A DNA stretch of 39,970 nucleotides from a virus. This document shows positions 1,501 to 30,981 of this stretch, in pieces; within the stretch, counting starts at the first letter, position 1, and each line of letters starts with the position of its first letter. Below the pieces are notes generated by a model that was not told the origin of the DNA, ran no database searches, and worked only from the letters and a program-made list of their open reading frames with translations. The translations under genes were made by a program, and so were the position numbers. The DNA lies in the IMG/VR virus record IMGVR_UViG_3300045988_068451, positions 1 to 39,970 of that record. One strand, given 5' to 3'.

Positions 1501-4500
1501 TAATTACCTCCTACCAACACAAGGCTCACTCCCTTTCTCTTTGCCTCTTTATCTAGTTCAGGCTTCAAAAGCCTTGCGAGAGCTCCAAGACTGCTGTCAA
1601 ACTTTATTACAATCTGAGAAGGCTCTGCACTTCCATTGCTTGCTTGCATTTTATCTGCTAACATTCCAAGAACATCGTCCTTATTCTCATAGCTTGCCTT
1701 TAGTGTATCTGTATATCCTGTACCTGTAGGCATTATTCTACCCTTAGCAACATTTGGTATATACGAGGATGCGTTAGGAATGTTTAAGCCTATAGGAACG
1801 CCTATATCAACGCCGTCGAATACATCAATTACTCCGCCCAGCCATTTTTGCGCCTCACTTATAGATGTCTTAGCTGTATCTGCAATACCGGCATTAAATC
1901 CTTTTACCACGTATTCAGCTATTGAACGGAACTCTCTTGAAGGAGAATGTATCTTAAATACTTTTTCCGCCTCTTGTACAGCTTCTCTTGCCCATTTTCT
2001 TACTGCAGACTTAGCCATGTGGCCAAATTCATTAATACCTTTTGCAAACCCCTCATTTATACGCTTAGCCATGTTGTAAAAAGTTTGATACAGGCCTCCT
2101 GATCCGGAAGTGTTACCATCTCCCCAGAACCACTCTGTTACATTTTTGCCCCATGTCTGCATAGGTGTTTTTGTTTCCGTGTGGCTACTCTCTATCTTTG
2201 TTTTAAATGCAGTAATTATGTCTTGTGCAAATTTAGTCCATGATTTTACATTTATACCTTTTGCCTCGCTCTCGTCCACAAACCATTTTCTAATGTTCTG
2301 TGCCCAAAGTTCTACAGGGCTTTGTGTATCTGTGTGAGACCCAAGTATTTTATCTTTGAAAGCGGTTATTATATCTAAGGCAAACTTAGTCCAAGACTCT
2401 TTGTTTACGCCCTTGTCACTTCCCGCACCTATAAACCATGTTCTTATCGCTTTACTCCACGCTTCTATAACATTCTGAGTAGTCTTATAGTTCGACGTAA
2501 CTCCAGTATTAAATCCGGTTATAGTTCCTGAAGCCCACTTTTGAGCTTCTGAAGAAGTATTACTGTTTATTCCAAGCTTTGTAGCAAACCAACTACTTAC
2601 TCCGCTCGCCCAGGATTGTATTATTGACTGAGTGCTTACTTGCTTCTGCGATACTCCTTGATTGAATCCCTCTACAGTAAACCCTCCGACTTCCTGCATT
2701 ATGGTTGAAGGACTGTGTATTCCCAAAAGCCCCTTCACTCCATTTACAAACGGATCTGTTATATTCTGCTTTATAAAATTTATAGGAGCTGAAAAGGTAT
2801 TCTTGACTCCGTTACAAAATCCTTCCCACAGATAAGTTCCTATTTCCTCCATCACCTTTGAAGGGCTGTGTATTCCAAAACCATTCTTTACTCCGTCAAT
2901 GAACGGCTTTATCATGTTTTTATACACCCATCCGGCTATGCCTATCAAAGCGTTTTTAACTCCATTTAAAAGGCCTTGTACAACATTACCCCCACAATCT
3001 TCTATTTCTTTGCCAAAGTAATCTCTGGCCTTCGTAAATCCTTTTATTATCAAGTCTGCAACTACTCTTGCAAGCATTCCGAACACAGTACCAACTGCAG
3101 AATAGAAAAGCGTGTAAAGCCTGCTTGCTATACCTAGCCAGTCTATGGATGTAAGCATTGTTTCTATACCTACAGCAAGCTTGCTCCAGTCGGTTGTTTG
3201 GACAATCTTTATAAGAGTATCAAGCAATCCTATTACAAACATGCCTATTGACTCGGCCACCATTCCAAAATCAAATGTGTTGAATATTGTAGTCAGACTT
3301 GTGCCGATATTCTCTCCAAGTGTTGCCCACTCAAAATTTTCTACAGCCGTATGAAATGCCCTAAAAACTCCGTTTAAGCTTTCAGCCGCCACAAGCCCTA
3401 AATTCTCCCACGGTATATGCTCCATCATGCTGTTTAAGCTTTGTGATACTGCGTCTCCTATACTCTCCCAGTCAACCGTTTCGACAAACCCTCTAAGACC
3501 CTCTACTTTCGCTTTGAAATATTCCCCCAGAGTTGCGCCGAACAATTCCCAGTCTATGGTGCTTACCATACCGTTTAAGCCATCGCCAAAAGCTTTACCA
3601 AGAGCATACCAGTCTATTTGAATTAAAAGCAAATACAGAGTATGCAGTACTGTATTTATACCTGTTCCAATCATAACTCCTATGGCATTCCAGTCTATCG
3701 TTGCCACAAGCGAATTGAACATAGTTGTAAAAGCTGTTACAAACTCCGTTATTTTCCCGCCCAAATTATCCCAGCTGATAAATTTAGTGAACATTCCCAC
3801 AGCGTCATTTATCTTTTCGCCTATAAGCTTTCCAATACCTGCAAAATCTCCGGCATTGAATAAGTCTTTTAACTGCTTCGCAAAGTCACTTATGCCCTTA
3901 TTTATCTCAGCTGTTTCGAACATATTTGCAGGAGATACGGCACCGCCGCCACCTCCTCCGCCACCGCCTGAGCCTTTGTTGGCATTCAGCTGTATCTGTA
4001 CAAGATCATCAAAAGGTGCGAGTGCTTTTTTAGCCTCTTGGCCTGCTTTCTTTGCTGCTCCTCCTGTACCTTTTAAACTCTTTGCGTAGTCCTCATTAGT
4101 CTTCTTGGCTCTTATGAATGTTGTCTTACCGCCTAATGCTGAAAAGAACTGGTTTATATAGCTTAACGCTGTTGCAAGTAAGTTTATAAGAGCGTTTAAG
4201 GCAGGAGCCACAGCAGTTAGGATAGGAGCAAATGCAGCCGCAAAACTGTTCTTTAGATACCCCATTGAAGACATAAGCCCTGAAAGAGTAGCGTTTGCTT
4301 CGCTTGAATACTGCACAAGGTTCTGAAATCCTTCTCTAACTCCCTGTATAACTGCACGCATAGCCATACGAATCAAGAGCATTTTAAACATGTTTGATAA
4401 CTTTAATATGCTCTTACTTACACCGTTTGACGCTCCGTTAATTTTCTTTGTGTTAGCTACAAAGCTTCGGATTTGAGAAGCCATCTTAGAGCCTATAGAC

Positions 4501-5171
4501 CTTGCAAACTTTAATGCTGCACTTGTAGCTTTGCCAAACGCCGCTTGTGCAGCAGAGCCAAAGCTTTTGAGAGGTGTTCCAACAGCTCTTTCTCTTTCTT
4601 CTGTTTCAGCAAGTCTTTGTCTATACACTTCCAGCTGACTTGTGAGTTGCTGAACTCTATTCGCCCTGTCCGTATATGCAGCACTATCCGTCCCAGAGGT
4701 GAAGGCTTCGCCATCAGCTTTCAGTTGCTCCATTTCATTTCTGTATACTTCAAGCTGTCTTGTAGTCTGATCTATATCATATTGTAAGGTTTTCCACCTG
4801 CTGGAGTTATGGCTTACACCCATAGCGTCCATTTTTTCCTGTCTTGCTATGAGTGCTTCAAGTTTACTGCTTGTTGCATCTATTTGCTCTTGATACCACT
4901 GGTATTCATCTGTTGGTATCTGAGATTGCCCAATTTCTGCCATCTCTGCTGTAAGTCTTTGTATTTTAGCTTCGGTTTGCTCTATCTGATTATTTAAATT
5001 AGTTATCTTTGAGCTACCACCAAAGCTTCTTTCTATAGTGCCTCCTACCCTTTCCATATCAGTCTGGAGAGTTCTTGCGGCACCCGAGAGTGTACTAACA
5101 CCTTGCTCGAATCCCGTGGTATCTACTCTGGTGTCAAACCTTAAACTTCCATCACTTCCGCCACCTGCCAA
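1500..5171 (-). CDS. Tail tape measure protein, 1223 aa
   Basis: Size and position after the tail chaperone genes. Coiled-coil N-terminal third, Gly9 run, many DW..(L/I)G repeats and three (G/K)IHSPS motifs. Tandem about 40-aa W-rich repeats near the C-terminus. TTG start 6 nt after GGGGGTG. Confidence 0.9.
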   Translation of the reverse strand: MAGGGSDGSLRFDTRVDTTGFEQGVSTLSGAARTLQTDMERVGGTIERSFGGSSKITNLNNQIEQTEAKIQRLTAEMAEIGQSQIPTDEYQWYQEQIDATSSKLEALIARQEKMDAMGVSHNSSRWKTLQYDIDQTTRQLEVYRNEMEQLKADGEAFTSGTDSAAYTDRANRVQQLTSQLEVYRQRLAETEERERAVGTPLKSFGSAAQAAFGKATSAALKFARSIGSKMASQIRSFVANTKKINGASNGVSKSILKLSNMFKMLLIRMAMRAVIQGVREGFQNLVQYSSEANATLSGLMSSMGYLKNSFAAAFAPILTAVAPALNALINLLATALSYINQFFSALGGKTTFIRAKKTNEDYAKSLKGTGGAAKKAGQEAKKALAPFDDLVQIQLNANKGSGGGGGGGGGAVSPANMFETAEINKGISDFAKQLKDLFNAGDFAGIGKLIGEKINDAVGMFTKFISWDNLGGKITEFVTAFTTMFNSLVATIDWNAIGVMIGTGINTVLHTLYLLLIQIDWYALGKAFGDGLNGMVSTIDWELFGATLGEYFKAKVEGLRGFVETVDWESIGDAVSQSLNSMMEHIPWENLGLVAAESLNGVFRAFHTAVENFEWATLGENIGTSLTTIFNTFDFGMVAESIGMFVIGLLDTLIKIVQTTDWSKLAVGIETMLTSIDWLGIASRLYTLFYSAVGTVFGMLARVVADLIIKGFTKARDYFGKEIEDCGGNVVQGLLNGVKNALIGIAGWVYKNMIKPFIDGVKNGFGIHSPSKVMEEIGTYLWEGFCNGVKNTFSAPINFIKQNITDPFVNGVKGLLGIHSPSTIMQEVGGFTVEGFNQGVSQKQVSTQSIIQSWASGVSSWFATKLGINSNTSSEAQKWASGTITGFNTGVTSNYKTTQNVIEAWSKAIRTWFIGAGSDKGVNKESWTKFALDIITAFKDKILGSHTDTQSPVELWAQNIRKWFVDESEAKGINVKSWTKFAQDIITAFKTKIESSHTETKTPMQTWGKNVTEWFWGDGNTSGSGGLYQTFYNMAKRINEGFAKGINEFGHMAKSAVRKWAREAVQEAEKVFKIHSPSREFRSIAEYVVKGFNAGIADTAKTSISEAQKWLGGVIDVFDGVDIGVPIGLNIPNASSYIPNVAKGRIMPTGTGYTDTLKASYENKDDVLGMLADKMQASNGSAEPSQIVIKFDSSLGALARLLKPELDKEAKRKGVSLVLVGGN

Positions 5172-5186
5172 TGTTACACCCCCTTT

Positions 5187-5219
5187 CTAAAAAATAAAAA
5201 GGGCACTATGAAATGCCCT
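5187..5219 (-). terminator. Rho-independent terminator-like hairpin between the Gp15-like gene and the tape measure gene
   Basis: Minus sense AGGGCA-TTTCATAG-TGCCCT (5219-5200) followed by TTTTTATTTTTT. The hairpin starts at the TAG stop of the upstream gene. Confidence 0.6.
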
Positions 5220-5778
5220 AATTCAACAAACTGTTTAAGTAATCTATTTCCGCCTGCTCTTCCTCGGTGTACCTTGTCTTTATGTCGCAGATATTTTTAT
5301 TGTGAGAATAGAAATCCTGCTCCCATTTTTCAAGTTTCTTGCCCCTCTGCTTCTTTTGCCTTATAGCTAAAACTGTTGAAAATGTTCCGCCCTCTATTTC
5401 CATAAAGTAGCCCATAAACGTCCACCAGTGAAGATATTTTTCTGCTCTCACCTCTTTACTTGCAACACGATTTATTGCCGGAAAGATAATAGTTGCGTCC
5501 TGTACCCAGTCTATTACCTTTCTTTGCTGTACTTCATTGCCTGACTTACCGCAGTCAACAAACCATTTTGCTTGCTCTAAGGCTTCTTCTATGTTAGCGC
5601 TTGATACTTCCCCGTAATTATCGCCGTATATCCTTTTTAGAAGTATATAGAGACGTTCCTTGTCGTTTATTTCAGGATCTTCACAAGCCTCCAAAAACAC
5701 TAATATATTTCTAAAATCAGTATTTATGGAATATTCTTTTCCTGCAACTGTTAATGCAGTCGGTAAGCACCCTATCAT
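5218..5778 (-). CDS. Gp15-family phage protein (tail assembly chaperone position), 186 aa
   Basis: Position between the major tail and TMP genes. The sequence pattern (LP..L.V.GKEY.I.TDFR..L...) resembles the bacteriophage Gp15 family as I recall it. ATGA overlap with the upstream gene. Confidence 0.65.
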   Translation of the reverse strand: MIGCLPTALTVAGKEYSINTDFRNILVFLEACEDPEINDKERLYILLKRIYGDNYGEVSSANIEEALEQAKWFVDCGKSGNEVQQRKVIDWVQDATIIFPAINRVASKEVRAEKYLHWWTFMGYFMEIEGGTFSTVLAIRQKKQRGKKLEKWEQDFYSHNKNICDIKTRYTEEEQAEIDYLNSLLN

Positions 5779-8420: not shown

Positions 8421-8543
8421 CTATTCCTTTGCTTTCTTTGCCTTTGCTGCTTCTGCCTTCAAGGCTTCGTTCTCTGCCTTAAGTGTCTCAATAATGTCCT
8501 CGGCCTTTGCCTCTGTACTTACTCCCATTCCTATCTGTCTCAT
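8421..8543 (-). CDS. Small coiled-coil protein, 40 aa (below track threshold)
   Basis: Manual translation MRQIGMGVSTEAKAEDIIETLKAENEALKAEAAKAKKAKE. SD GGAAGGAG lies 7 nt upstream. Sits between the capsid and connector genes. Confidence 0.45.
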   Translation of the reverse strand: MRQIGMGVSTEAKAEDIIETLKAENEALKAEAAKAKKAKE

Positions 8544-9446: not shown

Positions 9447-9995
9447 TTATTTATCCGAGGTACTCAACCCCATTGCAGCCCTTAGTGACATAGTGTTTGC
9501 ATCCATACCCGTATTACCTCCACCTGTAGGAGCGGTAGGATTATGAATAGGTTCATCACTCCCGAAAAGGTATGAATTTTCCTTCTGACACGCCTCCAGA
9601 GCTGTCTTAATATCAGTGCTCCTGTCCTTGCTTGCCTTTAATGCCTCAATGTCAAGTAAGGCCCTAACAGCTTTCGCACTCTTTCCGCCTGCTGCATTGA
9701 TAGCACTCTCAAGAGTAGAGTCAAATTGCATATCCGCAATCTTGCCTTCATATTCAGCTTTGGAATCCTCATACTTCTTCTTGTAATCTTCAACCTGCGC
9801 TTTCACCTGGTCATAGTCCTTGAAGCTTTCAATAGTTGTATTTGCTTCCTGTAACTGTGTCTTTACCTGCTCAAGTTCTGCTTTTACCTGTGCTACTTCA
9901 CTCTTTGCAGCTTCAATATCATTGCCGTTCTCGGCCATAATGCTATCAATCTGCTCCTTTGTGAGTCCCATGTCTTCTAATGACTTTCTTTTCAT
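9447..9995 (-). CDS. Scaffolding protein (GP20-like), 182 aa from ATG 9995
   Basis: Highly charged coiled coil (MKRKSLEDMGLTKEQIDSIMAENG...) directly upstream of the capsid gene. Track ORF trimmed to the ATG behind the SD. Confidence 0.75.
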   Translation of the reverse strand: MKRKSLEDMGLTKEQIDSIMAENGNDIEAAKSEVAQVKAELEQVKTQLQEANTTIESFKDYDQVKAQVEDYKKKYEDSKAEYEGKIADMQFDSTLESAINAAGGKSAKAVRALLDIEALKASKDRSTDIKTALEACQKENSYLFGSDEPIHNPTAPTGGGNTGMDANTMSLRAAMGLSTSDK

Positions 9996-10081
9996 ATTTG
10001 TTCCTTTCCTCACTACACTTTTTACGAGTTCGCTCTCATGTGCTGACTGTTTTACGTCTAATCAACTGACAAAATTGTATT

Positions 10082-10112
10082 AAAAAAGCACCCTATTCAG
10101 GTGCTTTGATTT
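10082..10112 (-). terminator. Hairpin terminator (potentially bidirectional) between the MuF/micro-ORF block and the scaffold gene
   Basis: Minus sense AAAGCACC-TGAATAG-GGTGCTTT followed by TTTAAT. The plus sense also has flanking A/T runs. Confidence 0.6.
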
Positions 10113-10123
10113 TTAACAGGCGT

Positions 10124-10249
10124 CTATTCTTCTTCCCACTTTTTCATTTCTTTACATCGTTCTGTTTCTTTCTCTATATCCCTCTCGACCTCTTCCAGCG
10201 TTCTACCGGAATCAACTATCGGCCCATCATAATAGCTTAATCTTCTCAT
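10124..10249 (-). CDS. Small acidic protein, 41 aa (below track threshold)
   Basis: Manual translation MRRLSYYDGPIVDSGRTLEEVERDIEKETERCKEMKKWEEE. ATGA overlap with the MuF stop, with GGAGGA 5 nt upstream. Confidence 0.45.
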   Translation of the reverse strand: MRRLSYYDGPIVDSGRTLEEVERDIEKETERCKEMKKWEEE

Positions 10250-12006
10250 AACTTCCTCCACTTAATACCATAATCTATTTCGAACTGTTCCAATGCTTTT
10301 ATATTAGCTTCTACCCCATTAGTGTAACCCATCTTCGTGTATTTTTCAACTGTATCGTCAAACAACCTTGCTGAAAACGGTTTATTACCAACCTCATAGG
10401 TATATATATCCCCGTTGTGGCAAGCTATGACCCCCATTTTGTACCTGCGAAATCCGGCAGATGCAAAATCAGCCCCCGATGGTGGTATGTTCGTCGGGTG
10501 ATTGTGTATGCTAATCAAAGAATACGGTTGACTTTTACTTACCGCATTAAGTAAGCTTTTGTTGTATTCAACTTCATAATCTGAACTACTTGACGTTTGA
10601 GAGCCTACTATTTCACCTTTCGATTTATCCAAAAGATACATGTCTTCTAATCTTGTTCCATTGCGATGAATCAGCATAGCTTTTGCTCTCTGATATATGC
10701 TCTCGTTAACATCCTGATTATCTGTAATTGTTTTGAACTTTGCTTTATACTGTTTTGAATTAATAAATTTTAAATCAACCTTACTGCTATCTCCTGCTGC
10801 ACCCTTTTTAGATGATATTCCTCTTTCTGAGTTATTACCGACCCCGACTTTCAACCTCTCCAGCTGTTGCGGCAATCCCATAGCCTTAGAAAACTCTGTA
10901 TATAAAGCTTTAACAGATTGTAATTTACTTTGCTTTGCGATAAGCACATCTTTATCTACTTCCGCACGACTAAGCAATATTACATCCTGTTTTAGCTTTC
11001 TGATAGTCCTTTCAAGCTTTCTTTGATACTGCAAGGCATCATAAACAGTGTACTCTTTACCCTTAAACTCCTTAGGCGTATTCTCTTTTTTATTCTGTTC
11101 TTCAAGCCATTCATCTGTATATTTTCGCTTTGATATGCCTTTGATAAACGGCCACTTGATGTGATAGCAGTTAATACCGGCAAAGCCTAATATATCACCT
11201 TCACCGCATATAGTAATCATTTCCTGCTTTGAATATACTTTACCTTGCCATTCTTGGTGGTTTTCAATGCCTATGCCCTTATTTCTCGCTCCAGGGTGCC
11301 AATCGACTTCAAAGTAATCAGTATCCAACTTTTTTGCGTTGCTTTCATTGATTTGGTTAGTCATTTGCGCAACGCCTGTCATCAGAGCACGTCTTACAGC
11401 AACTTCTATGCGGTCTGTTTTACCCGAAGCATAGTTTACTACCCTAAGCCCGCTATTCGTCATCTCGTCAATCACAGAGCCTATAGCTTGGCTATATGTA
11501 TATGCTCCGCTTGCTATTCCTATAAGGCTTTTATCAAGGCTCTTTGCAAAGTAGTCGGATAATGGAGTAAATGCAAGTTTACCATTCTGCATAATATTAA
11601 AACCCGTTGTCTTTGTTATATTCTCAAATGGTTTTATATTGTCCTTCGTGTGCTCTCTGGTGGCATTTACTAATTGTTTCAGCCACTCATTATCTTCATA
11701 GGCTAAATACTCCCTGCCTACCTTAGTAAAAAGGTCCTTGCGCGTTATATAATCAGCCTCAACCGCCTTATCGTATATCTTGTCTATGTCGATATTGGCC
11801 TGCTCAAGCTTTTCTTTTAACAGCTTCTTTATGCTTGAACCATTGCGATCTAATACCGTAAGCCTGTCAAGCATATGTTCACCAACCGGCGCAATCTCAT
11901 AAGCCTTCTTAATTCGGTCTACTACTTCGCCCATTACTTCAAGCTCAAGCTTTGATATAGTACGTTCAAGCGGTTTAGGAAGCTTCTCCATCTCCTGCGG
12001 TGTCAT
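10246..12006 (-). CDS. Head morphogenesis protein (SPP1 gp7 / Mu F family) with a C-terminal JAB/MPN-like domain, 586 aa
   Basis: MuF core motifs HQEWQGKVYS and GINCYHIKWPF. The C-terminus has IHNHPTNIPPSGADF (an HxH..S..D metal site). Located right after the portal gene. Confidence 0.85.
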   Translation of the reverse strand: MTPQEMEKLPKPLERTISKLELEVMGEVVDRIKKAYEIAPVGEHMLDRLTVLDRNGSSIKKLLKEKLEQANIDIDKIYDKAVEADYITRKDLFTKVGREYLAYEDNEWLKQLVNATREHTKDNIKPFENITKTTGFNIMQNGKLAFTPLSDYFAKSLDKSLIGIASGAYTYSQAIGSVIDEMTNSGLRVVNYASGKTDRIEVAVRRALMTGVAQMTNQINESNAKKLDTDYFEVDWHPGARNKGIGIENHQEWQGKVYSKQEMITICGEGDILGFAGINCYHIKWPFIKGISKRKYTDEWLEEQNKKENTPKEFKGKEYTVYDALQYQRKLERTIRKLKQDVILLSRAEVDKDVLIAKQSKLQSVKALYTEFSKAMGLPQQLERLKVGVGNNSERGISSKKGAAGDSSKVDLKFINSKQYKAKFKTITDNQDVNESIYQRAKAMLIHRNGTRLEDMYLLDKSKGEIVGSQTSSSSDYEVEYNKSLLNAVSKSQPYSLISIHNHPTNIPPSGADFASAGFRRYKMGVIACHNGDIYTYEVGNKPFSARLFDDTVEKYTKMGYTNGVEANIKALEQFEIDYGIKWRKL

Positions 12007-12010
12007 TTGC

Positions 12011-13381
12011 TTACTCCTCAGTCAATACCGGCTCAGGTAAGTTCTTTTTAGCCTCTGATTCCGTCTCTCCGTACCACTTACAGCGATATTCTAAGAGCGA
12101 CATAACTCCCATAGCCACATCCTGCCTGTCCTGTTGCCTCTCTGTCTCTTCGTCTACAAGAATACTGTCCTTGAATGTGCATACAAATTCGTATCCAGTC
12201 TTTGTAAGCCCGTTATAAAATGCCAGGGCATACACTAAGTCTTCTAAGCAATCCTTTAAGTTGGACTGTATCGCCTTTACCCTGTTAAACTTACGTTTCT
12301 TTGCGATCTTCGCTTCTGTGGCCGTCTTATCCACATTGCTGACATCGGACAAATCTCCGTAAGATAAACAAGAGTTAAATTCTATTCTTCTAAGATATGC
12401 ATTCAAACCGCTTATAATGTTACTATCTCTAAATTCAGGACTGTATTCCTGGTATATATCGTCCCCATTACCCTTAGATAGGTTTAATGCCCTATATAAC
12501 CTTTCAGATAGCTTAGGCATCTTGAAAGTCTTATTACCTTCTTTGCCTATGATTGGCACGGCTTGCAGTGCTGTAATATCTACATGTACAGCTCTCTCAC
12601 CGCTTTCAAACTCCCAATCAAGTCTTGCAAATTGTGTATCTGTCATCTTTATGAGATTTATGGAGGTATCAAATACCGACACTCCACAAGGTGAATTGTC
12701 CACAGTATTCTTTATAGGGTTTCTGTAATACCCGAAATCAGGCTTTTCTACTCCTGTATAAAACACATCCTCAGGAAGGTTTGCCCACTCTTCTATATCT
12801 GTCAAAGCAATAGGTGAGCCAATGCTGTTACCGTCTGAAGACTTATAAGCTTTATTCTGTATCCTCAGTGTTTTATCTTCTTTCCATTCGTGGTATTCAA
12901 GCCTTATATAAAAAGTGCTTTCGCCTACTCTCTTAACCTGTATAAATACCACACTTGTAAGCCTATCTTTTGAGTTAAATGCAAGCGGTATAAATCTATC
13001 TGCTGTTATATACTCAACCGCATCACCCCCCAAAGGCTTTATACAAAAGGATCCTAACCCAAGCCCAAGCTGTAAGTTCTCATTCAGTGCCCTGATAGAC
13101 TCCTGAAATATTATATCGACCTGTTCAATTGATACACTCGCCTCCATCTCATTAAGGCATACATTAGCAAACTCCGTACAAATGCCCTGCTCTATCATCA
13201 AAGAACTTACTTTGTTATCAATCCAAGAGGCTTGACCGTTATACATAGCGTTCCATGTCTCTATTTTATTTATCATTGCTTGGCTGATAGCTATGTCCTG
13301 CCCTATCACCTGCTTTATAGTTTTTGAAGGAAACACTTTTCTAATCACCCCTCTTATCATTTCTATCAATCTGCTAAACAT
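12011..13381 (-). CDS. Portal protein (SPP1 gp6-like), 456 aa from ATG 13381
   Basis: Position after TerL and size. The N-terminal pattern (I..W...Y.G...W) is typical of this portal family. Start moved to the ATG 1 nt after the TerL stop. Confidence 0.85.
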   Translation of the reverse strand: MFSRLIEMIRGVIRKVFPSKTIKQVIGQDIAISQAMINKIETWNAMYNGQASWIDNKVSSLMIEQGICTEFANVCLNEMEASVSIEQVDIIFQESIRALNENLQLGLGLGSFCIKPLGGDAVEYITADRFIPLAFNSKDRLTSVVFIQVKRVGESTFYIRLEYHEWKEDKTLRIQNKAYKSSDGNSIGSPIALTDIEEWANLPEDVFYTGVEKPDFGYYRNPIKNTVDNSPCGVSVFDTSINLIKMTDTQFARLDWEFESGERAVHVDITALQAVPIIGKEGNKTFKMPKLSERLYRALNLSKGNGDDIYQEYSPEFRDSNIISGLNAYLRRIEFNSCLSYGDLSDVSNVDKTATEAKIAKKRKFNRVKAIQSNLKDCLEDLVYALAFYNGLTKTGYEFVCTFKDSILVDEETERQQDRQDVAMGVMSLLEYRCKWYGETESEAKKNLPEPVLTEE

Positions 13382-13382
13382 T

Positions 13383-14978
13383 TTACTGTCCTTTTTTCTT
13401 CCAGATTCGGTTAGTTGCATATCTTACCGCATCTATACAGTGGTCATTACCATCAGGATATCCGCTTATAACATTATCCTCTTTATCTCTCTCATATTCA
13501 TAGTCTAAAAACTCCTGTGCAGCCTCAGGACATCTGACATTATCAATGATTATCTCTTTTAAAGACTGCAGCCATTTGTATGAGTATTCTCTACTGCCCG
13601 GACCTTTTTCCGCTGCTCTTGCAAGTAGTCCATAAGCTTTGTAATCACCTATAGATTTATTCTCTGCACTATCACAAGTAATTATGTCATTGCCTGTAAT
13701 GCCCATCTCAATAAGTGTATTCGCTGTCTGTTCATTGCTTTGCTTGTTACAAGTGTACTCCTGCCAAATATATAGTTTATGCTGTGCAGGCTCATAATGA
13801 ACACGCACAAAAGCAAATAAATCAGGATACCAACCCCAGTCAACACCGTTTAGAATGTGGTCAAATTCCGCTATCTCTTCATCTGCTATCTGTCTTATAA
13901 CAACATTGTCAAATACCGAACCGCCTGCACCGTTGGCAACGCCCATATACTCAGTTTCATAAGCGTCGGGATTAGTTTCCTTCAAGAACTCTGCTTCTTC
14001 AAGGAACGGTTTGCCAAGCCACTTAGCAGGCACTTGTAAGTAGTTACTTTCTATTACCGTCCTTGACTCTTTAGGCACCTTTATATATTTATTAGCCCAG
14101 TTATTTGATGTCTTAGGCGGGTTAAATGACTTAAATATATAAGCAACATCGCCGCCACGAATAACAGACTGCTCTATCTTTCTGACTGATTCGGGTCCCG
14201 CAAACTGATCTAACTCCTCAAACCATAAAATGCCAATGTATCCGAACGGCACCTTTATAGACTTAATCTTACCCGGATCGTCCGCACCTCTGAAATATAT
14301 CTTTTGCCCTGTGCTTTTCCGTGTAATCTCCATAGGGCTAACAGTCGCATGAAACTCTTCTGTAAGGTCCAGAGCGTCTATTGCCCACATAATCTGTTGA
14401 TACACAGAACCTCTGAGCGTGTCCGCCACCTGTCGCATTACTACAGCGTGCATATTATCGTTACGCATTATCAAGTCTATAACTTGCAATGACACGAAAG
14501 AAGATTTTGTTGAACCTCTACCGCCAGGGAAAACGTATTCAGTGTAGTTGTGTTCATGTATATCAAACAATACAGGAGCAAATACAGGGGCCACCATGCT
14601 TGCAGGTATCCCTGTGTACTTTGTTCCTTGTGTGCTTGAATCATCAGGTTTTAATTTTTCGTTTTGTAGCTTTATCTGTTCTATCTTTATTTTCTGCTCT
14701 TTAATATCCAGTGCCGTCTTAGTCTGCCCTATTAGGTCCCTGACTTCTTTAAAGGCTGATACAGCATTTTTATTGCCCGGATCCGCCGCTATATCTATCA
14801 AAGACTTAATCATCATTTCAGATATATCACCCGTAATCATGCCCTCTGCTATCTTTCGCAAGTCCGCTTTTCTTCTACGGGCAACTCCTGAAGCTTTACC
14901 GCCTTTTCTGCCACTTTCTCTCGCTTCGTCCTCGCTTCGCTCACTAAACGGTATTAAGTTATCCTGCCCATTTGCCAC
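13383..14978 (-). CDS. terL: Terminase large subunit (PBSX-type) with a TerS-like N-terminal extension, 531 aa
   Basis: Walker A FPGGRGSTKSS and Walker B-like ILWFEELDQF, with a C-terminal nuclease half. The first 45 residues of an N-terminal extension of about 115-120 aa resemble small-terminase N-termini (NLIPFSERSEDEARESGRKGGKASGVARRRK). Confidence 0.9.
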   Translation of the reverse strand: MANGQDNLIPFSERSEDEARESGRKGGKASGVARRRKADLRKIAEGMITGDISEMMIKSLIDIAADPGNKNAVSAFKEVRDLIGQTKTALDIKEQKIKIEQIKLQNEKLKPDDSSTQGTKYTGIPASMVAPVFAPVLFDIHEHNYTEYVFPGGRGSTKSSFVSLQVIDLIMRNDNMHAVVMRQVADTLRGSVYQQIMWAIDALDLTEEFHATVSPMEITRKSTGQKIYFRGADDPGKIKSIKVPFGYIGILWFEELDQFAGPESVRKIEQSVIRGGDVAYIFKSFNPPKTSNNWANKYIKVPKESRTVIESNYLQVPAKWLGKPFLEEAEFLKETNPDAYETEYMGVANGAGGSVFDNVVIRQIADEEIAEFDHILNGVDWGWYPDLFAFVRVHYEPAQHKLYIWQEYTCNKQSNEQTANTLIEMGITGNDIITCDSAENKSIGDYKAYGLLARAAEKGPGSREYSYKWLQSLKEIIIDNVRCPEAAQEFLDYEYERDKEDNVISGYPDGNDHCIDAVRYATNRIWKKKGQ

Positions 14979-18678: not shown

Positions 18679-19151
18679 TACTCATTCTCCTTTACTCGTG
18701 TAGCAAACGCTAAGCCTAACCACTCATCAACTTCTTTTATGTAAACAATGTCACTATTTTCACCGGCATAATATCTTATACCCTGCCCAAATGGTTTTAT
18801 AAGTTTCTCATCTACAAAAATTGATTTATCATCTTTTGTCTTAAATTCTTTCAGCTGTCTTCCATCCGGTAGAATCTTTATCACCTTTGTATCCGTCAGC
18901 TGGTCTGCAGTCTCCGCACTTTTGAAAATATTATCTACCCTCGTGTTACCAAATCCTGCAAACGCAGGATTTAATAAGCTATACTTCTCCGGTATCAGGT
19001 ATATTGATATGCCTTTATACATAAGCGGTATATATGTGTTCCCGTCTATCGTGACAGTGCTACAAATTCTATAGTTCGCTGCTTTACCCGTGATTTTTGA
19101 CTTACAGATGTTTTTTACCCCATCCGCCTGTACTTTTCCAAAATCTATCAT
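18678..19151 (-). CDS. Hypothetical protein, 157 aa
   Basis: Track ORF. ATGA overlap with the SNF2 stop. Confidence 0.6.
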   Translation of the reverse strand: MIDFGKVQADGVKNICKSKITGKAANYRICSTVTIDGNTYIPLMYKGISIYLIPEKYSLLNPAFAGFGNTRVDNIFKSAETADQLTDTKVIKILPDGRQLKEFKTKDDKSIFVDEKLIKPFGQGIRYYAGENSDIVYIKEVDEWLGLAFATRVKENE

Positions 19152-20518
19152 TTTTTCAATCTCTCCTTTACTTCTTGTATTCTAGCTTTTAAGCTGTCAA
19201 GCAAGGCTTGCTGTGTATCGCTCTTGCCCTCAAGCGCTTTGGCCACATCCTCATCACGCTTGCCTTTTACAAGCAATTGATGAACTATAACCTTTTGCTT
19301 TTGTCCTTGCCTGTGAAGTCTTTTAAGTGCCTGTTGGTACAGCTCTAGGGACCAGTTAAGACCAAACCATATCATGTGATTACCTCCGTCCTGTAAGTTA
19401 AGCCCATAGGCTGCACTTGCAGGGTGCGCAAGCAGTAGCTCTATTTTCCCCTCGTTCCAGTCTTTTTGGTCCTGTACGGTCTTCAGCTCTCTGCACTGCG
19501 GAAACTCTTTTATGATTCGGTCTTTGTCGTGCTGGAAGCTGTAGAACAATAAAATATTATGGCCTTTCAGTGATTCTATAATCTCTTTCAGTGCGTCCAT
19601 CTTGCAGTCGTGTATGTGATGGACCCCTCTGTCTTCATCATACACCGCCCCGTTGCAAAGCTGTAAAAGCTTATTTGAAAGTGCAGCTCCATTTGTAGCA
19701 GATATTTCTCCATCAGGAATTTGCAGAATATATTCTGTTTCAAATTCTCTGTAAACCTTATCGGCCTTGGCGTCTAAAACTACATACGTTGGGTTTATAA
19801 CAAGGTCAGGAAGCTCTAAATAATCACTTGCCTGCATTGATATGCAAAGGTCTGATAACTCTTTGGATATAAGCTCTTTGGCTCCGTCTTTAGGGGTGTA
19901 GTTTTGTCTTCCTGATGCATCTGCTGTGTAACTATCAAAATACCTGTTACGGTATTGAGTAATAGTCTTATAAAGCCTTTGACCCTTATCAAGCAAATAC
20001 ACTTGCGCCCATAAATCCATTAAGCCGTTAGGCGCCGGAGTTCCCGTAAGCCCTATAATTCTATCTATCCTTGGCCTTATAGCTTTTAAATCCTTAAACC
20101 TCTTTGCTTCTCTGCTCTTAAAACTTGATAGCTCATCTATAACCACCGTATCAAAAGGCCAATCATTTTTGTAATAATCCACAAGCCATGATACATTTTC
20201 ACGGTTTATAACATAGATGTCTGCAGGTGTACAAAGCGCTCTAATTCTCTTTGCGCTACTGCCAAGGCAAGTGCTTATTCTTAAATGTTTTAAGTGGTCC
20301 CATTTATCGGCCTCAAGTGCCCAAGTTCCTTCTGCAACCTTTTTCGGCGCTATGACTAAGGCTTTTGAAATCTCAAAACGGTTATAAAGTAAATCATTAA
20401 GGGCGGTTAAAGTTATTACAGTCTTTCCAAGTCCCATATCAAGAAACAGCCCAATTTCTTTTTGCGATATTATTCTTTCGATGCAATACCTTTGATAATT
20501 ATGCGCTTTGAATATCAT
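19148..20518 (-). CDS. SNF2-family helicase, 456 aa
   Basis: Motif I DMGLGKT, motif II VIDELSSF, motif III LTGTPAPNG, motif VI RLHRQGQ. Confidence 0.9.
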   Translation of the reverse strand: MIFKAHNYQRYCIERIISQKEIGLFLDMGLGKTVITLTALNDLLYNRFEISKALVIAPKKVAEGTWALEADKWDHLKHLRISTCLGSSAKRIRALCTPADIYVINRENVSWLVDYYKNDWPFDTVVIDELSSFKSREAKRFKDLKAIRPRIDRIIGLTGTPAPNGLMDLWAQVYLLDKGQRLYKTITQYRNRYFDSYTADASGRQNYTPKDGAKELISKELSDLCISMQASDYLELPDLVINPTYVVLDAKADKVYREFETEYILQIPDGEISATNGAALSNKLLQLCNGAVYDEDRGVHHIHDCKMDALKEIIESLKGHNILLFYSFQHDKDRIIKEFPQCRELKTVQDQKDWNEGKIELLLAHPASAAYGLNLQDGGNHMIWFGLNWSLELYQQALKRLHRQGQKQKVIVHQLLVKGKRDEDVAKALEGKSDTQQALLDSLKARIQEVKERLKK

Positions 20519-20780
20519 TTAAAAACTTATCTACTCCCTCTTTGCTGTCGATCACAAAAACCTTGCAACCCAAATCCTTAAGCCTGCCTATCTGCCTGTC
20601 CTGTAGTTGGCTTGTTTTTCCTCCAGGTCTTTTAAGCTCTATGAAATAAATCTTGTTTCTCGGCATTACTACAAGCCTATCGGGTACTCCTGCATTGCCC
20701 GGAGATGTAAACTTGAAGGCTATACCGCCCAGCTTTTTTACTCCAAGTCTTAAATATTCTTCAATCTCTCGTTCTCTCAT
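20499..20780 (-). CDS. VRR-NUC domain nuclease, 93 aa from ATG 20780
   Basis: GVPDRLVV...YFIELKRPGG..S.LQ (D...ExK catalytic pattern). ATGA overlap with the upstream gene. Confidence 0.85.
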   Translation of the reverse strand: MREREIEEYLRLGVKKLGGIAFKFTSPGNAGVPDRLVVMPRNKIYFIELKRPGGKTSQLQDRQIGRLKDLGCKVFVIDSKEGVDKFLNDIQSA

Positions 20781-20971
20781 TTTCTTAACCGCCAAAACCA
20801 ATTATTTATATCGTCCTCTTGCTGGTGAAAAGTTTCCACACCTAAATTTTTTCTTGCCGCTTTGAATTCGCTTTTCTTAAAGCCTGTCTTTTTAAATTCA
20901 GCTCTTACCCAATCTACCAAATGCCATTCTTCATCTTTTAACTGATCGACTAACCAATCTTCACAAGTCAT
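20777..20971 (-). CDS. Hypothetical protein, 64 aa from ATG 20971
   Basis: Track ORF trimmed to the ATG behind AAAGGAGA. Confidence 0.55.
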   Translation of the reverse strand: MTCEDWLVDQLKDEEWHLVDWVRAEFKKTGFKKSEFKAARKNLGVETFHQQEDDINNWFWRLRK

Positions 20972-20986
20972 TTTTTCTCCTTTCAA

Positions 20987-21130
20987 TTTAAAAAAGGGGG
21001 CAACTTTGACGTTTTTTTCTATATATATATGTATTAGGGGTATATATACGGTATATAGTGTCTATTTTATATAGTTATATACTTAATGTTGCTGTTGCCC
21101 TAATACTACAAACCCTTATAAATCAAGGCT
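20987..21130. promoter_or_regulatory. AT-rich repeat-containing intergenic region (candidate replication origin or middle promoter region)
   Basis: (TA)n and GGTATATA x2 spaced 11 bp apart, plus TATATAGT x2. Flanked by direct GGGGGCAAC copies (20996-21004, 21134-21142) and an inverted GTTGCCCTAA (21094-21103). Confidence 0.35.
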
Positions 21131-23515: not shown

Positions 23516-23518
23516 ATT

Positions 23519-25480
23519 TTAGTCCTTTTTATAAAACATTGATTCGAAACCGTCGCCACGTAGTATAAGCCCCCGGGCCCACGGCACGGGCTCCGCCATT
23601 ATATCTGTAAGTTCTTTAAGTTCTCTATCTACAGGGCTGTCAATTACCATTTCATCATGTATGTGCATCACTACTTTAAATCCCTTTGCTGCAGTCTTTT
23701 TCATACTTAATGCCAAACAGTCTCTTGCTATCGCTTGAACGATATTCTCAACTATCTTTCCTCCGTAGGTGCCTATTTCGCCCCATTTCTTAGTTCCCTG
23801 TTCTACACCCATGTAAAACATCTGCTCTTTGCACTTTTCATTAATCTTAAGTGTAGGGTTTATGTAAAATAACTCTCTACCGGAAGGTAGTGTAATTATC
23901 ATAAAATTATCTGCTTTTCTGAAAGTACAACCGTTTACGTTTTGAGCCATGCCCGTACGAACTGCTGTAAGAACTGCATTCTCACATCTATACCAAAGTT
24001 CAACTATTCTTTTGTTTGAACCTCTCCATCTTGCAACTATATCAAACAGCTCATCATCACTAAGCCCCATTTTATCGGCGCCCATAGCCTTTAGGGCTCC
24101 TACATGGCCTTGATACCCAAGAGCCAACTCCGCAATCTTTCCTTTTTGCCTAAGCTCATATTCGGGATTACCTTTTTTAATTCTATCTATCGGCACCCCA
24201 AACATAGCGGAAGCGGAAGCTTCATAAATTTTACCGTGTGTGGCAAATACTTCTTGCCTCCATCCCTCTCCTGATAGCCAAGCAATCACTCTCGCCTCTA
24301 TAGCAGAGAAGTCTGCAACAATAAATTTATTGCCCTGTGCAGGAATAAAAGTAGTTCTTATGAGTTGAGATAAAGTGTCAGGAATATTACCAAATATCAT
24401 TTTTAAGCTGTCTAAGTCCTTAGCCTTAACTAGATCTCTTGCAAGCTCTATCATATCCATATGATTTCTTGGCAGGTTTTGCACTTGTACAAGTCTGCCT
24501 GCCCATCTACCTGTTCTGTTACCACCGTAAAACTGCAAAAGTCCTCTTATTCTTCCGTCATCACAAAGGGCATTTTTCATTGCGTCATACTTCTTTACAG
24601 AAGTCTTTGAGAGTTCCTGCCTTATCTCAAGCATTCTTACAGCTGTATCGTTGTTAAGGTCTTTTATCATGCCTGAAACCGTTTCTTTCCTGAGATTATC
24701 CACCTCTTCGCCTGTCTCTTCCTCAAGCCATTTAGTTAACTGCTGTACTGATTTAGGGTTATTAAGTCCTGTAATCTCTTTAGCCTCTTCCATAAGGCTC
24801 TCTGTAATAGCCTGAGAACAATATAGAGCTCCTTCAATGAGCTTTTCATCTACGGCCACACCTGTGTTATTTATTATCAAATCCAGTCGCCATAGTTCCA
24901 TCTCGTCATCAGGTACCGGGTATTTATCTAAAATGTTTTTTATAGACATTTCAGTCACTACATCCTGCTTACAATATTCTCTAAACAGTTGCCATTTTTC
25001 GGGCTCATGCTGTGGAAGTATTCTTGTCCTAGGATCCTTCTTTGATGGCTTATGCGGTACGCAGAATTTGCGTATAAGGCTTAAGCCTACACCCATCTTC
25101 CTTTTGTCTTGTGGAAGTCCTATAGCCTCGCCTATGGCCGCTAAACCTCCGGGATACCCTAAATATAATCCATGATGCATTGTACAAGCCCAGCCGTCTA
25201 ATGGCAGTTCGTGCCCATAATATTTTGATAAACAAAGCCACTCAAATGTTGCGTTATAAGCACATTTTTCTACACCTGCCGATACTATCAGGCTGTAAAG
25301 CAAATCCATACCGGATTTAAAGTCGGGCTCTGTAAAATCAAGTATCTGCACAGGCCCTCCATCTAAACTATATGCGGCAAGCATTATTTCAAAATCAGGA
25401 GAGCGTACATATGCGTACGCTCCTGCTTTTTTAATATCTACACTGCTATAGGTTTCCAGGTCTATCGACAGCCTAATCAT
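23519..25480 (-). CDS. Family A DNA polymerase with 3'-5' exonuclease domain, 653 aa
   Basis: Exo I IDLETYS. Pol motif A VADFSAIEARV, motif B RQKGKIAELALGYQG, motif C HIHDEMV. Confidence 0.9.
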   Translation of the reverse strand: MIRLSIDLETYSSVDIKKAGAYAYVRSPDFEIMLAAYSLDGGPVQILDFTEPDFKSGMDLLYSLIVSAGVEKCAYNATFEWLCLSKYYGHELPLDGWACTMHHGLYLGYPGGLAAIGEAIGLPQDKRKMGVGLSLIRKFCVPHKPSKKDPRTRILPQHEPEKWQLFREYCKQDVVTEMSIKNILDKYPVPDDEMELWRLDLIINNTGVAVDEKLIEGALYCSQAITESLMEEAKEITGLNNPKSVQQLTKWLEEETGEEVDNLRKETVSGMIKDLNNDTAVRMLEIRQELSKTSVKKYDAMKNALCDDGRIRGLLQFYGGNRTGRWAGRLVQVQNLPRNHMDMIELARDLVKAKDLDSLKMIFGNIPDTLSQLIRTTFIPAQGNKFIVADFSAIEARVIAWLSGEGWRQEVFATHGKIYEASASAMFGVPIDRIKKGNPEYELRQKGKIAELALGYQGHVGALKAMGADKMGLSDDELFDIVARWRGSNKRIVELWYRCENAVLTAVRTGMAQNVNGCTFRKADNFMIITLPSGRELFYINPTLKINEKCKEQMFYMGVEQGTKKWGEIGTYGGKIVENIVQAIARDCLALSMKKTAAKGFKVVMHIHDEMVIDSPVDRELKELTDIMAEPVPWARGLILRGDGFESMFYKKD

Positions 25481-30800: not shown

Positions 30801-30828
30801 TAATGAAAATCTACGAAAGGAGGTGTCT

Positions 30829-30960: not shown

Positions 30961-30981
30961 TTGCTACTTTTGCTGCATAAC

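Follow-up and report, generated by a model that had tools for sequence, protein, structure and literature searches.

The locus studied here raises the question of what an enzyme-like domain does at the C-terminus of a phage head protein. It is situated in a 39,970-nucleotide viral sequence (IMG/VR record IMGVR_UViG_3300045988_068451, positions 1 to 39,970), further referred to as the window. The initial annotation, made from the sequence alone, described a capsid-packaged MuF protein fused to a JAB/MPN (JAMM-like) domain, and suggested that this domain is injected with the DNA and reverses conjugation of ubiquitin-like (Ubl) proteins by host defence systems.

The MuF2 head protein and its genomic setting

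The MuF2-JAB gene occupies positions 10246–12006 on the minus strand and encodes 586 aa followed by a stop codon, according to the list of open reading frames. The ENA contig ERZ27262759 has the same gene call with an identical protein. Residues 1–372 (10891–12006, minus strand) match the Pfam family PF06152 (Phage_min_cap2) with 306.5 bits against the gathering cut-off of 26.3 (E 3e-91), as well as the minor head protein family phrog_581. By this match the N-terminal domain is assigned to the MuF2 subfamily of the MuF superfamily, the name 'MuF2' having been given to PF06152 by Jamet et al. 2017 (PMC5576092). The proposed MuF fusion holds insofar as a MuF-superfamily head protein is encoded right after the portal gene; the N-terminal match is to PF06152 and not to PF04233 itself. 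The core motifs quoted for it are real: their H, WQGK and N-C-x-H positions (H250, W253-Q254-G255-K256 and N279-C280-H282) are invariant in the MuF2 alignment.

In the full-length AF2 model two confident modules, of which the MuF module spans aa 1–388, are joined by a flexible linker (aa 389–406; 10789–10842, minus strand) with pLDDT below 50. A fold search with this model yielded no solved relative of the MuF core. Invariant columns of the full-length alignments fall almost exclusively in the JAB domain, not in the carrier. By analogy, the MuF2 core is presumed to be a portal-binding carrier module inside the capsid. Packaging and ejection are known for SPP1 gp7, a MuF1 protein present in 1–2 copies per capsid, and MuF2-JAB would be packaged and ejected in a similar way. 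The only support found for the capsid presence of PF06152 proteins is a proteomics table for phage TP-84, where a 681-aa member of this family is tabulated as structural.

The gene is embedded in a head module with the order portal, MuF, scaffold, major capsid, and no separate prohead protease gene. The portal protein gene (12011–13420, minus strand; phrog_533, E 9e-119) is directly upstream, and TerL is at 13383–14978. Downstream are the head scaffolding protein gene, directly following (9447–10013, minus strand; phrog_194, E 3e-46; PF06810 match on the identical ENA contig), and the major capsid gene. Since an integrase (33186–34325) and an HTH repressor (31580–31963) are encoded in the window, the phage is judged to be temperate from its gene content; its relatives are prophages in bacterial genomes.

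The C-terminal JAB domain

The C-terminal domain covers aa 405–586 (10249–10794, minus strand). It was initially thought to start at residue 440; conservation and the AF2 model place the start at about aa 405–408, and the domain includes an N-terminal helical extension (aa 405–447). Conservation was assessed in 163 diverse homologs with 30–70% identity. The motif ISIHNHPTNIPPSGADF (10465–10515, minus strand, rather than 10462–10512 as given initially, a shift by one codon) contains H501 (10504–10506), H503 (10498–10500), S510 (10477–10479) and D513 (10468–10470), all correctly numbered in the initial annotation, and is near-invariant: both H501 and H503 are retained in 163/163 homologs, D513 and P509 in 162/163 each, and Ser or Thr at position 510 in 158/163. 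The upstream glutamate suspected in LEDMY is E454 (10645–10647, minus strand). It is conserved in 158/158 homologs, is located just before the first core strand in the AF2 model, and is a candidate for the general base of the JAMM site. The distance from HxH to Ser, already noticed as one residue shorter than in RadC, is indeed fixed across the whole family as HxH-x6-S, one residue below the JAMM pattern E-x(n)-H-x-H-x7-S-x2-D. An extra family-conserved histidine, H530 (CHNG; codon 10417–10419, minus strand; 154/163 homologs), is on the first strand to follow the S..D helix, at the place of the conserved 'DH' of RadC; the two are unpaired in the profile alignment, and the extended HHalign alignment is of low confidence in this region.

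The AF2 model of the domain has a pLDDT of 95.6. In the domain numbering, E50 precedes strand 52–56, strand 93–99 carries HNH at 97–99, and helix 107–115 contains D109. This predicted topology, with HxH ending a strand, S..D starting a helix and Glu before the first core strand, is the one published for RadC-like domains. A Foldseek search of PDB with the domain model retrieved PfJAMM1 (5ld9, probability 0.99), RadC (2qlc, 0.80–0.96) and AfJAMM; with the full-length model, Pyrococcus JAMM1 was again the sole high-probability match. These JAB matches are modest (E about 1e-2, TM 0.4–0.55), and cytidine and tRNA deaminases of the same fold are returned as well.

Alignment to the RadC family by HHalign gave a probability of 92.4% (P 5e-7), compared with 0.7% when the alignment was reversed and no more than 3.5% in 20 column shuffles. 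RadC 2qlc was also the top PDB match (E 0.025) of a trimmed 47-sequence profile, with E, HNHP and PS..D aligned; this profile supersedes an earlier shallow one, which included linker columns and had no JAB match in PDB. Pfam RadC (PF04002) was matched by 18/47 family members (best E 0.0049), Prok-JAB by 2/47, and no other family by more than two; single members have weak matches to PF14220 and PF15659. For the window protein, single-sequence searches of Pfam, NCBIfam and PDB produced RadC matches below the thresholds only (12.4 bits against the cut-off of 22.1 for Pfam RadC, and 11.9 against 180 for NF000642).

The complete E...HxH...S..D set, the AF2 model with Foldseek, HHalign and the PDB profile concur, and the initial assignment to the JAB/JAMM type is upheld. 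By sequence and the structural model, aa 405–586 form a divergent RadC-clade JAB domain with an intact catalytic set of E454, H501, H503, S510 and D513. By its scores it falls outside PF04002 as currently defined and represents a homologous sister clade of RadC. Such a domain may be expected to bind metal and to be enzymatically active.

At 50% identity the family falls into at least 1,386 clusters, and the domain is always C-terminal. Of 36 full-length proteins with JAB, 21 have MuF2 as the carrier, 13 have MuF1 and one has a portal protein. The hosts include Clostridia, Lactobacillaceae and Coriobacteriia; cultured phages with this domain are Streptococcus phage MissF and Anaerostipes phages AC844P1-3. 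'Solo' JAB proteins of 143 aa were rejected as standalone genes, P0002 being what is left of a MuF2-JAB gene interrupted by an IS element.

The exchangeable cassette and its micro-ORF

The limits of the exchanged segment are seen in comparison with L085, a phage whose portal, MuF core, scaffold and major capsid are essentially the same but which has neither JAB nor micro-ORF. In blastn the two sequences are collinear over window positions 15000–10833 and 10113–7001 (about 85% identity on both flanks). The 719 bp in between (10114–10832, minus strand) consist of linker, JAB and micro-ORF, and in L085 they are replaced by 208 unrelated bp. The left recombination boundary is inside the linker, at about aa 392. 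No similarity between the 719-bp and the 208-bp inserts was found by local alignment (score 22 vs shuffle mean 21), on which ground the interpretation of L085 as a deletion derivative (with 'MRLSY*' after the MuF stop) was rejected.

None of the 81 nearest MuF2 loci, chosen by N-terminal similarity, has JAB or the micro-ORF; they carry C-terminal extensions of 13 unrelated groups or no extension. The survey of replacing domains, recommended in the initial annotation, thus confirms for the present lineage its statement that the C-terminal domains of MuF proteins are variable. The sequence comparisons indicate that linker, JAB and micro-ORF form a discrete mobile cassette exchanged among MuF2, MuF1 and portal genes. 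The initial annotation had missed both this cassette behavior and the micro-protein partner. Just downstream of the cassette, outside it and within the block common to L085, is a terminator-like hairpin AAAGCACC-TGAATAG-GGTGCTTT followed by a T-run (10085–10107, minus strand; one site in the scan against 0.2 expected). A promoter-like site inside the JAB coding region was discarded (one found, 1.2 expected by chance).

The micro-ORF (10124–10249, minus strand) encodes 41 aa plus a stop, MRRLSYYDGPIVDSGRTLEEVERDIEKETERCKEMKKWEEE. The product is acidic (pI 4.8) and belongs to phrog_30750 (E 2e-20); the ORF was called independently on the ENA contig. Its ATG overlaps the stop codon of MuF-JAB (TTATGA), and its GGAGG Shine-Dalgarno sequence (10255–10259, minus strand; AGTGGAGGAAGTTATGAGA) is in the W583-R584 codons of the JAB domain. 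Across the family, start and stop overlap in 47/66 junctions and an SD-like motif is present in 44/53, which shows translational coupling of the micro-ORF to MuF-JAB.

Linkage of the two genes is strict: the micro-ORF is present in 79/79 viral loci with JAB and in 0/81 loci without it, both sets being phylogenetically redundant, so that these counts overstate the number of independent events. It is also present in all intact genome loci whose downstream sequence is long enough (Clostridia, Lactobacillaceae, Coriobacteriia), follows JAB in the MuF1/SPP1-portal context, and is found in the isolated phages MissF and AC844P2. Its dN/dS of about 0–0.2 indicates purifying selection. The median pI equals 4.6 for the micro-proteins and 8.3 for the JAB domains, which are mildly basic (median net charge +2). 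A word-index search with the 41-aa protein returned just two near-identical clusters. A seemingly natural fusion of JAB and micro-protein, P0076, was set aside, as its last strand is missing, probably due to a frameshift. The gene for the long PF06152 protein of TP-84 is followed by a similar small acidic ORF, but no JAB was detected there by tblastn.

The architecture fits the layout of polymorphic MuF effector/toxin systems with immunity-like genes, and because the micro-protein is obligatory and co-translated and the cassette behaves as an exchangeable unit, a toxin/effector with an immunity-like partner is suggested. The micro-protein may be an inhibitor, an immunity protein or a chaperone for the JAB domain, and the linkage suggests that the two bind each other. 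A partner of 41 aa would be unusually small for an immunity protein and may serve as a cofactor, a substrate or an assembly adaptor instead; moreover, immunity is of limited value when the gene is expressed late, in a cell about to lyse.

Possible function and comparison with known systems

Our preferred explanation, to which we assign a probability of roughly 0.6, is that the two-module protein made of MuF2 and a RadC-clade JAB, together with the micro-protein encoded in the same swappable cassette, constitutes a capsid-delivered effector and its partner. The enzyme and the micro-protein would be made late in infection in similar amounts via the ATGA start/stop overlap, and as long as both are in the producing cell the micro-protein would restrain the active site of JAB. 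The MuF core would carry the enzyme into the procapsid and, by analogy with SPP1 gp7, bind the portal inside the capsid. In the next infection the enzyme would enter with the DNA and without its partner, and hydrolyse a host target. We lean slightly, at little better than even odds, toward a host protein, cleaved at an amide (peptide or isopeptide) bond, as the substrate instead of a nucleic acid or a nucleotide, because the characterised JAB enzymes are all amidohydrolases and the full E/HxH/S/D set is retained.

The locus resembles MuF polymorphic toxins (PMC5576092) in the MuF-superfamily N-terminus right after the portal gene, the variable C-terminal payload, the small ORF directly downstream, and the occurrence in temperate phages of gut Firmicutes. 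It differs from them in the payload, since JAB/RadC is not listed there (neither word occurs in PMC5576092), and in the partner, which is about 40–55 aa long, translationally coupled and forms its own family phrog_30750. Toxicity of the C-terminal domain and its neutralisation by the downstream protein are putative here. The toxin domains Tox-JAB-1 and Tox-JAB-2 (DUF4329; Zhang et al. 2012, PMC3482391) are likewise divergent JABs with E, HxH, S and D, located C-terminally and each accompanied by a dedicated immunity protein. However, their carriers are RHS and T6SS/T7SS proteins instead of MuF or portal, their immunity families are Imm65 and Imm-NTF2-2 instead of a helical micro-protein, the closest profile in our case is RadC and not Tox-JAB, and the HxH-x6-S spacing is specific to the present family.

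Features in common with RadC/YicR itself (PF04002; 2qlc) are HNHP...PS..D, a Glu that precedes the first core strand, and a His located on the strand following the S..D helix (the 'DH' of RadC, unpaired by the profile alignment). In contrast to RadC, the present domain scores 12 bits where 22 are needed, has a one-residue deletion between HxH and Ser, lacks the HhH/UPF0758_N module, is extended by N-terminal helices (S417, Y420, K423, F424, H447, R448) and two C-terminal ones, and is always found on a capsid carrier and paired with the micro-ORF. Polyvalent proteins that phages and conjugative elements transfer along with their DNA can contain RadC as well (PMC5512222). The same work (Iyer et al. 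2017) describes fusions of MuF and portal proteins to PBECR, 2H, RelA/SpoT and PRTase domains and views MuF-fused enzymes as injected effectors; like these and like T4 Alt and P1 DarB, the present protein has a putative enzyme on a head or portal-vertex carrier, and a portal-JAB fusion exists in its family as well. A MuF-RadC/JAB fusion with a dedicated micro-protein does not occur in the text of PMC5512222, and delivery in the present case is presumptive. For RadC-family proteins no activity has been demonstrated in the published literature, and our literature searches yielded no functional studies of RadC paralogs.

The role proposed initially, that of a virion-delivered JAB isopeptidase which removes, as the DNA enters, Ubl conjugates made by type II CBASS (Cap2) or Bil, would agree with the fold, the complete JAMM catalytic set, the best structural match (to PfJAMM1, itself a genuine Ubl isopeptidase), the (iso)peptidase activity of all characterised JAB enzymes and a location in the capsid suited to early counter-defence. 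Cap3 of type II CBASS and the Bil JABs have the same fold and broadly the same metal-site motif, yet the affinity of the present domain is to RadC (18/47 members vs 2/47 for Prok-JAB) and not to Ubl-type JABs: the PADLOC JAB models are matched by 0/47 family members (E up to 1) and not by the window domain (E up to 10), whereas genuine RadC (E. coli YicR), used as a positive control, matches PDLC00909 and PDLC00892 'JAB' at E 0.005–0.014. Comparative genomics predicts that RadC-type and toxin-type JABs lack the residues of the Ubl-tail tunnel (PMC5512222, PMC3482391). Furthermore, the gene is phage-encoded and located in a structural module, its neighbors being portal, micro-ORF and scaffold. 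A scan of about 30 window proteins revealed no E1, E2 or Ubl families and no operon partnership with E1/E2, Ubl or CD-NTase genes. An obligatory inhibitor-like partner would be unexpected for an enzyme attacking a product of defence alone, Bil acts late, on tail assembly, and not at DNA entry, and counter-defence by phage JABs is absent from the literature searched. The sequence affinities thus do not support a deconjugase and somewhat disfavor it; overall we consider it unlikely. A wider version, in which an injected JAB isopeptidase removes, within seconds of the start of infection, Ubl/cGAS-type conjugates or another protein modification made by defence and the co-translated micro-protein is a safety catch left behind at packaging, is improbable too. 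If true, it would be the first case of a phage antagonising bacterial Ubl-conjugation immunity with a capsid-delivered protein of its own, and would provide the RadC branch of JAB enzymes with its first biochemical function.

The same delivery and cassette logic would apply to a RadC-type enzyme processing nucleic acids or nucleotides, which differs from our preferred explanation in the substrate alone. It would act either on the end of the entering genome, kept in place by the MuF core, or on nucleic acids or signalling nucleotides of the host, and the acidic micro-protein would act as a nucleic-acid-mimicking inhibitor. The RadC-clade affinity, the Foldseek matches to cytidine and tRNA deaminases, the resemblance of the acidic partner and mildly basic JAB to nuclease–immunity pairs, the predominance of nucleases among MuF toxins (more than half; PMC5576092) and DNA binding by SPP1 gp7, as given in the titles of references, speak for it. 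On the other hand, no nuclease has been shown among JAB-fold proteins, the domain is weakly basic, and it has no HhH or other nucleic-acid-binding module; we treat this as a tentative alternative of rather low probability. A protease acting in the procapsid on scaffold, capsid or MuF, with the micro-protein as an assembly factor, is suggested by the peptidase activity of JAB enzymes and by the absence of a separate prohead protease gene from the head module, where MuF is at the position in which one often sits. SPP1-type heads, however, need no protease. Since the head module of L085, with about 85% identical portal, MuF core, scaffold and major capsid, has no JAB and no micro-ORF, the domain is dispensable for building such a capsid, and 81 related MuF2 phages have unrelated extensions or none in place of JAB; a morphogenetic role is therefore very unlikely. 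Finally, all matches to curated JAB families are below threshold, as would be the case for a non-enzymatic structural extension with HxH...S..D arising by chance or persisting as a relic. This is extremely improbable and in effect already refuted by conservation: in 163 homologs the four catalytic residues are invariant and make up the most conserved columns of the whole protein, and the controls fall far short of the fold and profile matches.

RadC-type JABs are among the most widespread uncharacterised enzyme domains of bacteria and mobile elements, none of them with a known substrate. The family described here offers a tractable entry point, being large, strongly constrained and equipped with a defined delivery vehicle (MuF or portal). 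Its obligatory micro-protein partner probably reports on the JAB active site, and JAB-less phages of the L085 type are natural isogenic comparators. The gene of roughly 40 aa is an integral part of the module that gene callers easily miss or that is mis-annotated (for instance as 'RNA helicase' in MissF). For the MuF polymorphic effector systems of temperate phages of the human gut, the cassette would represent a new, currently unannotated class of payload.

MuF carrier and identity of the C-terminal domain

The 586-aa protein described in the initial annotation is encoded by an open reading frame on the minus strand (10246..12006). Residues 1–372 match PF06152 (Phage_min_cap2; Pfam, E 3e-91), the family that Jamet et al. 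(PMC5576092) named MuF2 within the MuF superfamily; at full length, the protein matches phrog_581, "minor head protein". The gene is flanked by the portal gene (phrog_533, E 9e-119) on one side and the scaffold and major capsid genes on the other, which is the canonical MuF position. The full-length AlphaFold2 model has pLDDT of 85.8 with a sole long low-confidence stretch, aa 389–406. The MuF core (aa 1–388, 10891-12006) is confidently modelled, and a fold search against 350,542 PDB chains yielded no informative match for it; a solved structure of the MuF2 core, a very common phage head protein family, is apparently still lacking.

The C-terminal domain, initially placed from aa 440, starts at about aa 405 as judged by conservation and modelling. 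Its motif ISIHNHPTNIPPSGADF is present with H501, H503, S510 and D513 as first described, whereas its DNA coordinates are 10465-10515, one codon off those given initially; E454 is the Glu upstream of the motif. Single-sequence searches were suggestive of RadC (PDB 2qlc, E 0.44): the Pfam scan proposed in the initial annotation did return RadC, but at E 0.16, under the threshold. Because of this score the domain falls outside PF04002 as currently defined. Pfam has no model dedicated to it, and it is hidden within "minor head/capsid protein" annotations.

Four independent lines then converge on JAB. With an E-value limit of 1e-3, an exhaustive profile search retrieved 1,386 representative clusters, of which 1,017 pass a limit of 1e-10; in 160 of the 163 proteins analysed, no more than 15 residues separate the domain from the C-terminus. 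Among the homologs, E454 is conserved in 158/158, H501 and H503 in 163/163, D513 and P509 each in 162/163, S/T510 in 158/163, H530 in 154/163 and N502 in 153/163. In the full-length alignment of 36 members with 21–71% identity, invariant columns are almost confined to this domain. When a trimmed 47-sequence profile was compared with the PDB, RadC 2qlc ranked first (E 0.025) with the Glu, HNHP and PS..D all aligned; individually, 18 of the 47 members match Pfam RadC and at most two match any other family. HHalign was run against a 29-row RadC alignment composed of the E. coli YicR seed, 27 relatives and the 2qlc fragment. It gave 92.4% probability (P 5e-7), compared with 0.7% for the reversed alignment and at most 3.5% for 20 column-shuffled controls. 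Exactly one gap separates HxH and Ser in this alignment and the x6 spacing is fixed family-wide, so the spacing is indeed one residue shorter than in RadC, as noted at the outset.

The AlphaFold2 model of aa 405–586 has pLDDT of 95.6 and pTM of 0.90. Its best PDB matches are Pyrococcus JAMM1 (probability 0.99, TM 0.55), RadC (0.80–0.96) and AfJAMM, followed by deaminases of cytidine and tRNA that share the superfold; the E-values are modest, about 1e-2. JAMM1 is again the sole high-probability match in the fold search with the full-length model. In the modelled domain a strand ends with HNH, the next helix starts with D513, and E454 precedes the first core strand, in agreement with the arrangement described for RadC-like domains. 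The JAB/MPN type proposed initially is thus backed by conservation, profile, HHalign and fold-search data alike, and from sequence and modelling we place the domain in a divergent clade that is sister to the RadC-type JAB domains.

A micro-ORF behind the JAB domain

The MuF-JAB gene is followed by a micro-ORF of 41 aa (10124-10249, minus strand) whose ATG overlaps the MuF stop codon (TTATGA), with GGAGG located ahead of it within the W583–R584 codons. It was called by an independent gene caller on the ENA contig that carries the identical MuF-JAB protein (ERZ27262759), and its product matches phrog_30750 (function not annotated) with E 2e-20. An ORF of 40–56 aa begins in the last MuF-JAB codons in 79 of 79 IMG/VR loci, which were retrieved via the JAB domain and are phylogenetically redundant. 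The micro-peptides can be aligned: YYDGP.xDS.(R)T.EE is followed by an acidic helix of about 20 residues and then by [L/M]xxW. In an independent set of genomes spanning Clostridia, Lactobacillaceae, Negativicutes, Erysipelotrichales and Coriobacteriia, the micro-ORF is present in all intact loci with enough downstream sequence; those of Coriobacteriia and L. johnsonii are longer and too diverged for the micro-protein HMM. It also follows JAB on a MuF1 carrier in the SPP1-portal context, as well as in the isolated phages Streptococcus MissF and Anaerostipes AC844P2. Of 66 distinct junctions, 47 show overlapping start and stop codons, and of 53 nearby micro-ORF starts, 44 have an SD-like motif ahead of them. 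The dN/dS for related pairs is approximately 0–0.2.

In MissF (OL799250.1) the 52-aa acidic ORF located directly after the MuF-JAB gene (3057-3215) is annotated as "ATP-dependent RNA helicase" (MissF_0029); this name is almost certainly wrong and the product the micro-protein partner of JAB.

Two further elements of the late region were observed. A G+C-rich hairpin followed by a T-run (10085-10107), terminator-like on the gene strand, lies between the micro-ORF and the scaffold gene, within the late structural operon and outside the cassette formed by linker, JAB and micro-ORF, in a block shared with the JAB-less phage L085. Its possible effects include attenuation of read-through or control of the ratio in which MuF and scaffold are expressed. 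A second micro-ORF (8421-8543, minus strand; 40 aa, Ala/Lys/Glu-rich, MRQIGMGVSTEAKAEDIIETLKAENEALKAEAAKAKKAKE) is situated between the major capsid and head-tail adaptor genes; it is likewise present in the ENA gene calls (L197, 5464-5586), and a 51-aa ORF occupies the equivalent position in an Enterocloster clostridioformis MAG (L199).

Exchange of the cassette and its carriers

The sharpest comparison for cassette exchange is L085, which is collinear with the window at about 85–86% nucleotide identity over window positions 15000-10833 and 10113-7001. Between these blocks, window positions 10114-10832 (719 bp: the linker from aa 392, JAB and the micro-ORF) are replaced by 208 unrelated bp. 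The left boundary falls inside the low-confidence model segment aa 389–406. A survey of the C-terminal domains replacing JAB in MuF homologues, suggested in the initial annotation, covered 81 phylogenetically redundant MuF2 loci retrieved by the N-terminal domain alone. Neither JAB (0/81) nor the micro-ORF (0/81) was found in them; these proteins either end without an extension or bear one from 13 unrelated groups, several of which contain HExxH motifs. Among the 36 full-length JAB-bearing proteins the carriers are MuF2 (21), MuF1 (13) and the portal protein (1).

The last case (P0022, 666 aa) is a direct portal–JAB fusion with N-terminal PF04860 (Phage_portal), JAB at aa 486–666 and no MuF core. 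In another IMG/VR locus (L157, IMGVR_UViG_3300045988_090156) the MuF2 ORF 3486-5318 has a far more divergent JAB-like C-terminus FVHNHVTNCSLSEMD, in which the HxH-x6-S-xx-D spacing is unchanged, yet it is missed by the family HMM; an acidic ORF of 80–92 aa overlaps its stop codon. Since this locus escapes the HMM, the superfamily of JAB payloads carried by MuF proteins is probably broader than 1,386 clusters. In the E. clostridioformis MAG (JBKUHG010000149.1, 295-3554) an IS insertion, which encodes a DDE_3 transposase and HTH_32 on the opposite strand, separates the MuF2 core (397 aa) from JAB, leaving a 143-aa "solo" JAB ORF with a 40-aa micro-ORF still behind it. Seemingly standalone family members of 143–145 aa are explained by such splitting of the gene. 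The MAG also points to Lachnospiraceae as likely hosts of this phage group.

A closely related MuF2 protein of 632 aa is encoded by Acutalibacter phage Fontainebleau (ON453893.1, 2477-4914). Its C-terminal domain, about 220 aa long and containing Cys and His, is a different one, and two ORFs come after it, one of 78 aa and one of 98 aa annotated as "peptidase"; the site holds a further combination of payload and partner here. The layout also resembles that of Geobacillus phage TP-84, where the gene for a 681-aa PF06152 protein listed as structural (TP84_08) overlaps by 4 nt with a downstream 69-aa ORF of pI 4.9 (TP84_09; PMC5889276). The JAB domain of this family was found by tblastn in no TP-84 record.

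Possible function of the cassette

The locus has the anatomy of polymorphic effector and toxin systems: the delivery module is conserved, the payload at the C-terminus can be swapped, and a small partner gene is transferred along with it. According to Zhang et al. (PMC3482391), two other JAB clades serve as payloads of polymorphic toxins, and a dedicated immunity protein accompanies each. The window itself belongs to a temperate phage. We consider a capsid-carried JAB effector with a micro-protein partner, acting on a host target after ejection, to be the best explanation (probability about 0.6). The JAB domain would be a Zn-hydrolase that leaves the capsid with the DNA and then attacks its target, and the micro-protein may be a co-translated inhibitor, immunity protein or chaperone. 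Packaging and ejection are presumed by analogy with SPP1 gp7, the general MuF-fusion model (PMC5512222) and the TP-84 proteomics table (PMC5889276). As to the substrate, we lean slightly towards an amide bond, because no other chemistry has been demonstrated for JAB enzymes and all the catalytic residues are present; a nucleic acid or nucleotide stays plausible given the RadC affinity and the acidic partner.

The initial annotation's deconjugase, aimed at type II CBASS or Bil defence, appears improbable. Nothing specific was found in its support: the PADLOC JAB models match genuine RadC but none of 47 members of this family, and the tunnel for the Ubl tail is reportedly lacking in RadC-type and toxin-type JABs (PMC5512222, PMC3482391). 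Moreover, the tight coupling to an inhibitor-like partner suggests an activity harmful in the producing cell, the Bil target is tail assembly late in infection rather than DNA entry, and the literature searched contains no report of a phage JAB acting in counter-defence. That the domain is a morphogenetic protease is unlikely because L085 makes essentially the same head without it.

The rest of the window (19148-27262, 30006-35542) completes a temperate siphovirus. It encodes an SNF2-type helicase, a VapE-like primase/helicase, a family A DNA polymerase, a Gp2.5-like SSB, an exonuclease and an endolysin-like protein that bears choline-binding repeats. The GC skew changes sign at a plus-strand lysogeny island with an HTH repressor, a Bro-N protein and a tyrosine integrase.

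Effectors borne by MuF proteins were already known, as were JAB domains acting as toxins. What PMC5512222, PMC5576092 and PMC3482391 do not describe is a RadC-like JAB payload that is carried by MuF or portal proteins and obligatorily accompanied by a micro-protein. The family delimited here combines large size and strong constraint with experimental tractability, and could yield the first function for the RadC branch of JAB enzymes.
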